44,890 nt of DNA, from sequence record PV841871.1. The stretch is one strand, 5' to 3'. A program made the translations under genes and the position numbers. A model generated the notes under the pieces. It was not told the origin of the DNA. It did not search any database and worked only from the letters and a program-made list of their open reading frames with translations. Below, piece after piece: positions 18,424 to 19,740 of the stretch. This DNA is from Escherichia phage Ivi. How positions within the stretch are numbered: the stretch's first letter is position 1; the number at the start of each line of letters is the position of its first letter.

Positions 18424-18613
18424 TGTTAACTCTCTTAAATCGGGCTATGCCTGACTCGTTAATGCTGCCTATTTCAAAGAAGCTGCGATATTTAGGCGAA
18501 TACATTCTTACGTCGCCGTTCTCTAGGGTGACCCCTTCATATACAGCGCCTACTTCGAATCCATTTTTCTCCGCGTACGGACTCACATCGGTGCATTCAT
18601 ACATATCTTTCAT
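18413..18613 (-). CDS. hypothetical protein (66 aa)
   Basis: ORF track; start overlaps upstream stop. Confidence 0.5.
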   Translation of the reverse strand: MKDMYECTDVSPYAEKNGFEVGAVYEGVTLENGDVRMYSPKYRSFFEIGSINESGIARFKRVNSDK

Positions 18614-19740
18614 CCCAGCATCTCCGGTGAAATAGTTAAACGTGCGACCTCGCCATATTCGGCACTATAGGTAATTACATTTGCGCTACGGCCTGACATC
18701 CATCCACCGCGCGAGGCGTAGGCGTCTTTAGCCGCCAGGGTGCGGTGTTGCTCAACAATCATGTTACGGCTTTCCACAATCTTCTGATGGTGGAGGTGGC
18801 CTACGTGGGCGTAGCTGTAAACGCTTTCGCCAAATGCTTTGCGGAACTTGGCAATCATAACCGGTTCGATAGCGTCGAATCGTGCCTTATGCCCGTGGTG
18901 AAAGAACAGCGTCGTTTTGCCGTGTTGCACCATCTTGTAAACATCTGGCGACGTATCGACGAACACACGAGGCTCATTGTCGTACAGCGTACTAAACATC
19001 TCAGCTAACCAAATCATTCCGCTTTCGTCGTGGTTTCCTTGCACGATAAGCAAGCTAACATTTTTATGCTTAACCAGCGCCATACCGACAACACGGCGGA
19101 CCATACGAATCATGTAGCGGACAAGTTTCTGATAGCGAGTGTCCGCATCAAGGGCGTGACCGCTTGCAGGCGTAACGGCAACCAGACTGTCGAAGTGCGC
19201 GAAGTCGCCCAGCAGGTTAATAACTCCAGTTCCTGCATCCGGCGCTTTCTGGAACGCCGCATCGAACCAGCGAGAAAACAGGTCTTCCGCAATCTTCATA
19301 TCCCAGTCGTCGCCACTCTCGTCGGCCCAGGCCAGCATACCAAGATGGAAATCAGATACAGTGTAAAGATTGAGTAGTTTATCGTCACGTTTGGTGCGAA
19401 CGGCTTTAACTGGTACAACGGGAGTAATCTCCGACTTCATGCCTTCGATTACGGCTTTCATCAACTCGACCTGACGTTCAGCGTCAGTGTCTGTCTTAAC
19501 CCATTGCAACTTAGTGTTGCCGAACTCGTCCACAAGCGACGACGTTCCTTTAATCTTGTAGCCGTCCGGGACAAGATGGCTAACGTCACGACCGTGACCT
19601 ACGCCTTTCTTCGCCAGCTTCGCTTTACGGATACGAATAACTCGGTCTGAGATGCCGTATTTACGGGATATGTCGATAATCTTTGTTCCGGCGTTCAATT
19701 CTTCCTGTAACTGTTCGTCGGTTATTTTAATCTGGGCCAT
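18610..19740 (-). CDS. HTH domain fused to a calcineurin-like metallophosphoesterase
   Basis: N-terminal IIDISRKYGISDRVIRIRKAKL (HTH-like); phosphoesterase motifs SDFHLG, GDFAHFD, QGNHDE, FFHHGH, GHLHH; RBS GAGGAAG. Confidence 0.8.
   Translation of the reverse strand: MAQIKITDEQLQEELNAGTKIIDISRKYGISDRVIRIRKAKLAKKGVGHGRDVSHLVPDGYKIKGTSSLVDEFGNTKLQWVKTDTDAERQVELMKAVIEGMKSEITPVVPVKAVRTKRDDKLLNLYTVSDFHLGMLAWADESGDDWDMKIAEDLFSRWFDAAFQKAPDAGTGVINLLGDFAHFDSLVAVTPASGHALDADTRYQKLVRYMIRMVRRVVGMALVKHKNVSLLIVQGNHDESGMIWLAEMFSTLYDNEPRVFVDTSPDVYKMVQHGKTTLFFHHGHKARFDAIEPVMIAKFRKAFGESVYSYAHVGHLHHQKIVESRNMIVEQHRTLAAKDAYASRGGWMSGRSANVITYSAEYGEVARLTISPEMLG

Follow-up and report, generated by a model that had tools for sequence, protein, structure and literature searches.

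Functional precedents for the gene considered here are two phage-encoded metallophosphoesterases (MPEs) implicated in the breakdown of host DNA. The A1 protein of phage T5 is both required for degradation of the host chromosome in vivo and sufficient to cause it; it is described as a putative metallo-phosphatase, likened to double-strand-break-repair nucleases and polymerase proofreading subunits, and has been reported to interact with host RNA polymerase; its nuclease activity in vitro is not yet demonstrated (10.64898/2026.04.02.716235). In the cluster A mycobacteriophage A10ZJ24, the early-expressed MPE Gp48 has phosphodiesterase activity and disrupts host genomic DNA, for which its MPE motifs are required (PMC12287305). 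A further MPE family is a core gene of the Drexlerviridae, where it is present in 508 of 522 (PMC13164509). A member of this last family is encoded by Escherichia phage Ivi, a Kagunavirus (Guernseyvirinae) whose complete genome of 44,890 bp is the window analyzed here. The gene, located at 18610..19740 on the minus strand (ATG start, stop codon 18610-18612), encodes a protein of 376 aa in which a predicted helix-turn-helix (HTH) precedes the MPE domain. We tentatively interpret this protein as a partner-less DNA phosphodiesterase of the Mre11/SbcD type that would be held on DNA by its HTH and would most likely degrade host DNA. That DNA is the substrate is probable, while the choice of the host as the source of that DNA is advanced a shade more cautiously than the interpretation as a whole.

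Catalytic core and N-terminal modules

The calcineurin-like MPE catalytic domain spans residues 119-376 (18613..19386, minus strand), lacks a capping domain, and carries the five superfamily motifs DxH / GD / GNH[DE] / H / GHxH that provide the di-metal ligands. Conservation was assessed in an alignment of the Ivi protein with 70 relatives of 34-50% identity (71 sequences). Motif I, SDFHLG (residues 129-134; 19339..19356), contributes D130 and H132, both invariant, and motif II, GDFAHFD (residues 178-184; 19189..19209), contributes the invariant D179 together with a Mre11-type histidine, H182, found in 69 of the 71 sequences. N236 and H237 of motif III, QGNHDE (residues 234-239; 19024..19041), are invariant, as is H282 of motif IV, FFHHGH (residues 279-284; 18889..18906), in which H284 is kept in 66 sequences. 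Motif V, GHLHH (residues 314-318; 18787..18801), contains the invariant H317 and H315, a position occupied by His in 67 sequences and by Asp in four. G178 and G314 are likewise invariant, and H182, D184, H284, and H315 are at least 90% conserved. The preliminary description, which had been made from the sequence without database searches and proposed a complete MPE motif set in this open reading frame (ORF), is therefore borne out in its exact coordinates, with all five of the motifs it quoted present in order.

The family is divergent, since the Pfam Metallophos models match the Ivi protein only below their gathering thresholds (PF00149, 20.7 bits against a cut-off of 27; PF12850, 18.4 against 21.5), and one close homolog (P0033) has a precomputed PF12850 match. 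NCBIfam returned noise only (MurE and hydrogenase protease, E 0.01-0.1), as did a single-sequence search of the PDB. The AlphaFold model built from the 71-sequence alignment has a mean predicted local distance difference test score (pLDDT) of 91 and a predicted template modeling score (pTM) of 0.78, with pLDDT values of 92-99 over residues 119-376, and its fold neighbors are solved MPE enzymes. The highest fold scores belong to DNA nucleases, namely the PolD DP1 proofreading exonuclease (15.9), Thermotoga maritima Mre11 (15.3), and S. aureus SbcD (15.1), followed by the lipid A precursor hydrolase LpxH (13.8), the DNA nuclease P. furiosus Mre11 (13.6), the small phosphodiesterase MJ0936 (13.5), the phosphodiesterase GpdQ (12.6), and the cyclic-nucleotide phosphodiesterase Rv0805 (11.9). 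Other Mre11/SbcD entries and eukaryotic polymerase B-subunits score 10-13, the protein phosphatases PP5 and calcineurin about 9, and the DNA nuclease P. putida MPE 8.7. When a profile of the catalytic domain was compared with 177,635 PDB sequences, the matches were almost only Mre11/SbcD (E 0.02-1.5), with two unrelated sequences near E 1. In the alignment to T. maritima Mre11, motif I falls on SDWHLG and the GDflH of motif II on GDLLH, histidine included; this histidine of the GDxxH motif is a nuclease-specific feature of Mre11. On the basis of these fold neighbors, the Mre11/SbcD profile matches, and the GDxxH histidine, the enzyme as modeled is of the nuclease structural type.

The differences from these nucleases are nevertheless considerable. 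Identity to Mre11/SbcD proteins (3qg5/2q8u, 7dog, and E. coli SbcD 6s6v) is 13-17%, and whereas those enzymes have a capping domain, the Ivi protein ends with the MPE core and adds an N-terminal HTH, a hairpin module, and a conserved loop at residues 185-202. No Rad50/SbcC partner of the structural maintenance of chromosomes (SMC)-like ATPase type, the gene for which usually adjoins that of Mre11/SbcD, was found in the 44.9-kb genome by ORF list and PHROG scans, and the annotation of the related phage Schulenburg shows no such gene over the 35.5 kb examined. Identity to PolD DP1 (5ihe), a 3′-5′ proofreading exonuclease, is 12%, and the N-terminal module of the Ivi protein is an HTH and not that of DP1. 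Neither a DP2 catalytic partner nor a PolD-like gene was found in the Ivi genome, whose DNA polymerase, a Pol I-type member of family A, lies at 33750..35990 and is annotated in Schulenburg, and a role as DP1 was rejected because there is no PolD for it to serve. T1-like phages, which carry the MPE family, are not known to encode a DNA polymerase. The PPP/ApaH (lambda PP type) signature, which consists of GDxxDRG in motif II and GNHE in motif III, is absent from the Ivi protein.

The N-terminal part of the protein contains two predicted modules. The first is a three-helix HTH of the GerE/LuxR/sigma-70 region 4 type at residues 8-47 (19600..19719, minus strand), modeled with helices at 8-16, 21-28, and 32-44/47 and pLDDT values of 89-97. 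N-terminal regions of 50 relatives match 34 Pfam families, all but two of the 25 listed being HTH or DNA-binding families; HTH_1 is matched in 13 of the 50, and the best E values are 2e-10 for Sigma70_r4_2 and 5e-9 for GerE. A profile of the N-terminal family matches GerE, RhlR, NarL, and sigma-H region 4 in the PDB (E 4e-4 to 2e-3). By contrast with the family, for which sequence profiles and model make the HTH clear, the Ivi copy taken alone is not convincing: its own best match is HTH_Tnp_1 at E 0.15, and it is just a predicted three-helix bundle. A Foldseek search of the PDB with the N-terminal 117 residues, modeled separately, gave no significant match, the best local matches being the HTH domains of DosR, VqmA, and VpsT (probability 0.66-0.84). 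This shorter model has a pTM of 0.46, with two flexibly linked sub-modules, and model confidence dips in the linker at residues 45-60. The second module, delimited by secondary structure, pLDDT, and conservation, is a conserved beta-hairpin (residues 61-85) followed by a helix (87-104) at 19429..19560 on the minus strand; its consensus is KGxSTLY..G....QWVK, with W80 at least 90% conserved, and no significant fold match was found for it in the PDB. The HTH-like N-terminal module proposed earlier is thus supported by the three-helix model and by the Pfam and PDB profile matches of the family, while the separate hairpin/helix module at residues 61-104 had been overlooked.

Two further observations concern the active site. 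A family-specific and nearly invariant loop lies after motif II, GDFxHxD...VTPxSGHxLDxDxR (residues 178-202; 19135-19209, minus strand); it is mostly non-helical in the model, T. maritima Mre11 has no match in the alignment for the His, Asp, and Arg residues conserved in it, and it may form a substrate-binding or extra metal site. T5 A1 likewise carries a conserved His-rich stretch after motif II (HDxxDFxSRNHHN). Separately, metal-ligand substitutions are present in 4 of 116 near-identical Kagunavirus homologs (P0011, P0062, P0084, and P0085), comprising H315N twice, H315Y, and N236K. H315N may be tolerated, since the four distant relatives with a different residue at this position have Asp. 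The N236K change is likely to abolish activity, a hint that loss of the MPE gene is not lethal to the phage.

Possible targets of the enzyme

In the interpretation favored here, Ivi would produce a phosphodiesterase that is structurally of the Mre11/SbcD/DP1 type, acts alone with an intact di-metal site, and has a DNA-binding module of its own (the GerE/sigma-70-region-4-type HTH) in place of a Rad50/SbcC partner. The gene would be transcribed leftward as one unit with the gene for an Imm-like membrane protein and three translationally coupled small ORFs. The HTH, and perhaps also the hairpin module, would keep the enzyme on duplex DNA, where the MPE site would hydrolyze DNA phosphodiester bonds. 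The resulting breakdown of the host chromosome would bring about host shut-off and supply deoxynucleoside monophosphates (dNMPs) for phage replication, as with T5 A1. Conservation of the metal ligands in the 71 sequences, a nucleotide-salvage context, and the partner-less MPE precedents fit this interpretation. T1 reportedly degrades host DNA, a function that has been studied genetically (gene 2.5).

Gene neighborhoods were examined in 45 loci. Immediately after the MPE gene, Webervirus has genes for polynucleotide kinase and dNMP kinase, and Thermus phage Lalka27b has genes for a nucleotidase and dNMP kinase; the A1 gene of Vibrio phage D232 precedes one for polynucleotide kinase. The kinase pair seen in Webervirus is also what most often lies downstream of the MPE gene in those Drexlerviridae without an SH3 gene (PMC13164509). 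The recurrence of nucleotide-salvage genes beside the MPE gene suggests that its products feed the dNMP pool.

The precedents themselves differ in how closely they resemble the Ivi protein. T5 A1 and the Ivi family share the same described neighbors, break-repair nucleases and polymerase proofreading subunits, and A1, like the Ivi MPE, is a partner-less phage protein. No Pfam match was found in T5 A1 (locus L047, 1706-3376, minus strand). Its C-terminal half contains a full MPE motif set (GDxH, HD, SNHD, HGH, and GHxH) that is invariant in eight diverse homologs, which come from phages of Demerecviridae, Vibrio, Agrobacterium, Caulobacter, and Flavobacterium; the A1 family as a whole occurs in 1,135 phage records, well beyond Demerecviridae. 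Comparison of A1 with the MPE family by hhalign gave a local match at motif III, aeGNHDxxSSxWLre against veSNHDlaLsrWLdd, with a score of 36.6 (P ~1e-3; controls 12.9-23.4 for one reversed and 20 column-shuffled profiles), and in a permissive alignment motifs III-V stay in register, as does the C-terminal ITY strand. On these alignments the similarity is above chance, yet no more than expected for two members of the MPE superfamily. Gp48 of A10ZJ24 is a precedent by its reported activity; its motif I begins at about residue 10 (the position of a D10G mutant), and it therefore lacks the N-terminal HTH/hairpin module.

Several points weigh against the host-DNA interpretation. The sequence link to A1 is weak (hhalign probability 21-23%, HMMER 3-7 bits), and by HMMER the family is nearer to T. 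maritima Mre11 (17.5 bits). A1 belongs to a separate PHROG, phrog_1745, to which the Ivi protein has no match and which is the only one A1 matches significantly. At 480-570 aa, A1 has N-terminal and middle regions unlike those of the Ivi protein, and Pfam detected no HTH in the N-termini of five A1-family members. An HTH architecture common to both families was considered and rejected, since Pfam gave no HTH and a single HMMER alignment to the N-terminus of Ccr34 was too weak. Given the weak similarity, the closer HMMER match to Mre11, and the lack of a detectable HTH in A1, A1 is best regarded as an analogue and possibly a remote relative, and not as a member of the same family. Beyond A1, the literature yielded no biochemical or genetic study of a member of the MPE family, no means of sparing phage DNA is evident for a host-DNA degrader, and Ivi already encodes a phrog_69 exonuclease beside its SSB.

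An unlikely but substantial alternative is that the enzyme acts on the phage's own DNA, as a Rad50-independent, Mre11-like nuclease that processes ends, hairpins, stalled forks, or recombination and concatemer intermediates. The structural and sequence neighbors described above would serve this role equally, and the public annotation "DNA repair exonuclease" points the same way. In T1, Tlsvirus, and Webervirus the MPE gene is the last of a rightward operon with a helicase, a VRR-NUC resolvase-like nuclease, and a Dam methylase, directly before the lysis cassette, and VRR-NUC lies upstream of the MPE gene in 6 of the 45 loci. However, the absence of both a Rad50/SbcC-like ATPase gene from the genome and a capping domain from the protein argues against such processing, as does the phrog_69 exonuclease already available to the phage, and in both Guernseyvirinae and Dhillonvirus the MPE gene lies away from the replication module. 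Dhillonvirus has it between the lysis genes and terS; a packaging-associated nuclease, considered because the gene abuts terS there, was rejected, as this position is not kept in T1-like phages, Guernseyvirinae, or Vibrio phages.

A more elaborate form of the host-DNA interpretation is improbable as it stands. In this form the HTH would guide the nuclease to particular sites of the host or to its transcription apparatus (for instance promoter -35-like DNA or RNA polymerase), so that the host chromosome would be dismantled selectively and phage DNA spared; the enzyme would be the host-DNA-degradation function of T1-type phages, and its products would be signals for genome-degradation-sensing defenses.

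It is more doubtful still that the protein is a regulator or host-takeover factor, in which the HTH would be the main actor as a transcription or RNA-polymerase-associated factor and the MPE domain a protein or nucleotide phosphatase or a scaffold. Such a role would agree with the matches of the relatives' N-termini to Sigma70_r4_2, Sigma70_r4, GerE, and LysR HTH models, with the reported contact between T5 A1 and host RNA polymerase, and with the frequent location of the MPE gene just upstream of the late lysis and terminase genes (an endolysin gene within 2.4 kb in 13 of the 45 loci, TerL downstream in 6), but the catalytic site is strictly conserved and protein phosphatases are distant.

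Least probable is a counter-defense phosphodiesterase directed against nucleotide immune signals (cyclic mono-, di-, and oligonucleotides, or Thoeris-type signals), as both structure and sequence match nucleases better, it is not obvious what a small-molecule hydrolase would do with a DNA-binding HTH, anti-defense genes are typically sporadic whereas this one persists in the Drexlerviridae core and is found in some 2,000 phage records, and the viral signal-degrading enzymes in a 2026 survey have 2H, poxin, DHH, and HD-GYP folds (10.64898/2026.07.21.739742). Of the functions put forward in the preliminary description, the nuclease is thus the one favored by the Mre11/SbcD/DP1 neighbors, and the second-messenger and protein-phosphatase proposals find poor support. 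Since the substrate specificity of an MPE is not readable from its fold, the host-DNA interpretation is retained alongside these other three.

The leftward island and other features of the Ivi genome

The region at 18000-20200 shares 98% identity with Escherichia phage vB_EcoM_SHAK7693 and 95% with phages Schulenburg and Snoke, and the MPE gene itself shares 98% with the annotated gene of vB_EcoM_SHAK7693. The gene order of Ivi agrees with that of the annotated Schulenburg genome; structural genes are oriented rightward, and replication genes (helicases, Pol I, SSB, exonuclease, and primase-helicase) run leftward at ~30.6-42.6 kb. As in other Guernseyvirinae, the MPE gene lies inside a leftward island between the tail tube gene (16823-17995, plus strand) and the tail assembly chaperone genes (20150 onward, plus strand). 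A virion or tail protein, considered because of this position, was rejected: the gene is oriented against the tail genes, its product has an enzyme fold, and other phages carry it at other locations. A Shine-Dalgarno sequence, GAGGA, is located 8 nt 5′ of the ATG of the MPE gene (19749..19753, minus strand).

The first gene of the island, upstream of and co-oriented with the MPE gene, encodes a T4 Imm-like superinfection-immunity membrane protein (phrog_1039, E 5.6e-27). Its ORF (19780-20109, minus strand) is listed and publicly annotated as 109 aa; however, an AGGAG box at 19983..19979 stands 7 nt before an internal ATG at 19971, and a Jerseyvirus homolog is annotated as 59 aa, suggesting that the product is a membrane protein of 63 aa (19780..19971) and that the start is most likely the ATG at 19971 rather than at 20109. 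With that start, the 5′ 138 nt would constitute a promoter or leader with a sigma-70-like site. This promoter candidate for the island, ATCACA-17-CATAAT (20023..20051, minus strand), matches the consensus weakly, at 9 of 12 positions, and sigma-70-like sites in the island region are no more numerous than in shuffled sequences.

Downstream of the MPE gene are three small ORFs of 66, 76, and 59 aa (18024..18613, minus strand), which are also annotated in phage Schulenburg. They are joined to the MPE gene by start/stop overlaps (ATGA at 18610-18613 and at 18200-18203), with a GTG start at 18423 that falls within the end of the preceding ORF. The 76-aa ORF (18193-18423, minus strand) is the only one with PHROG matches, to phrog_2452 and to phrog_17613 ("ATPase"), and these cover only the C-terminal 50-75 residues of families of ~180-250 aa. 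In Jerseyvirus "wast" the island ends with a gene for a 239-aa "DNA-binding protein"; this gene and the partial PHROG matches suggest that the 76-aa Kagunavirus ORF may be a stand-alone or remnant C-terminal domain. The island is closed by a GC-rich hairpin (18000..18019; 8-bp stem with 6 GC pairs and a minus-strand T-run), a candidate bidirectional terminator that on the opposite strand stands after the tail tube gene. PADLOC gave no match for the MPE protein or its four island neighbors.

This local anatomy shows predicted co-transcription and translational coupling of the island genes, from which the timing of their expression is not derivable. Early expression of the MPE gene, as had been supposed, was an assumption resting only on the strand shared with the replication genes; the gene lies behind a weak promoter candidate and among tail genes. 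The literature search found no expression data for the MPE gene, and no transcriptomics for T1-like or Jersey-like phages.

In other genomes, HNH homing endonuclease genes are often found directly 3′ of the MPE gene. In several proteobacterial phage and prophage loci, a protein of ~140-155 aa with a weak phrog_27780 match is encoded directly upstream (L013, 3540-4007, with equivalents in L027, L033, and L040), its stop codon overlapping the MPE start codon. This protein, which is absent from the Kagunavirus island, is a possible partner of the MPE protein.

Other features of the Ivi genome lie outside the island. The tail assembly chaperone family phrog_15027 (259 positions) spans both ORFs at 20150-20566 and 20572-20931 (plus strand) end to end, with the second in the -1 frame, which is the usual G/GT programmed-frameshift arrangement upstream of a tape measure gene. 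A 317-aa DNA methyltransferase (phrog_363, E 1e-86; 32088-33041, minus strand) adjoins a helicase gene, and no methyltransferase is annotated in the matching stretch of phage Schulenburg; the enzyme might conceivably shield phage DNA against restriction or against the phage's own nuclease. An HNH endonuclease ORF (phrog_99; 36914-37435, minus strand) overlaps the end of the phrog_69 exonuclease gene (37402-38658, minus strand) by 34 nt and has the appearance of a homing endonuclease inserted into the recombination module.

Distribution and significance of the family

As a feature the Ivi gene is not new: it is one ordinary representative of a very large phage family and has already been deposited and annotated. 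A protein 100% identical to that of Ivi is already public (P0001) under the name "winged helix-turn-helix domain-containing protein", and close relatives are named "metallophosphoesterase" or "Nuclease MPE". The Ivi protein belongs to phrog_704 ("DNA repair exonuclease"), which it matches over residues 5-375 of 376 with an E value of 9.3e-163, and it also matches phrog_20703, 20762, 284, and 21891. Coliphage T1 gp16 (YP_003929) is 46% identical over the whole length and shares the identical HTH-hairpin-MPE architecture; only the genomic position differs, the gene lying in the tail-gene island in Guernseyvirinae and at the end of an early operon before the lysis genes in Drexlerviridae. A HMMER search of 1.84 billion cluster representatives recovered 4,573 relatives at E<=1e-3, 1,129 of them at E<=1e-30, and most of the best 150 are 360-420 aa in length. 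By tblastn, the family is present in 2,039 of 50,697 phage records (~4%), including Kagunavirus, Jerseyvirus, Dhillonvirus (75% identity), Drexlerviridae such as T1 (46%), Webervirus (41%), many Vibrio phages (31-41%), and phages of Campylobacter, Flavobacterium, Rhodobacter, and Thermus. A Foldseek search of BFVD returned members of the family and other phage MPEs. A related-locus search seeded with a six-sequence alignment also placed the family at 37 loci in bacterial genomes, which are prophages or phage contigs as judged from their endolysin, terminase, VRR-NUC, and HNH neighbors; no cellular or defense-island version was seen among them.

The MPE family is among the most widespread uncharacterized enzymes of lytic siphoviruses, and it occurs in groups of enterobacterial phages that are often isolated, namely Kagunavirus, Jerseyvirus, Webervirus, and Dhillonvirus. 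Were the enzyme a repair or recombination nuclease, it would represent Mre11-type chemistry without Rad50. If it is a host-DNA nuclease, it would explain host shut-off and nucleotide acquisition by these phages, would add a second independent partner-less MPE chromosome destroyer to T5 A1, and would predict which phages trigger the newly described genome-degradation-sensing defenses. Should the HTH target the nuclease to particular host sites or to the transcription machinery, T1-type phages and many other small siphoviruses would owe to this family their host-DNA-degradation function, long unidentified, and the dNMPs, dinucleotides, and DNA ends it releases would be the signals sensed by defenses such as Metis, PUA-Cal-HAD, and ApeA.

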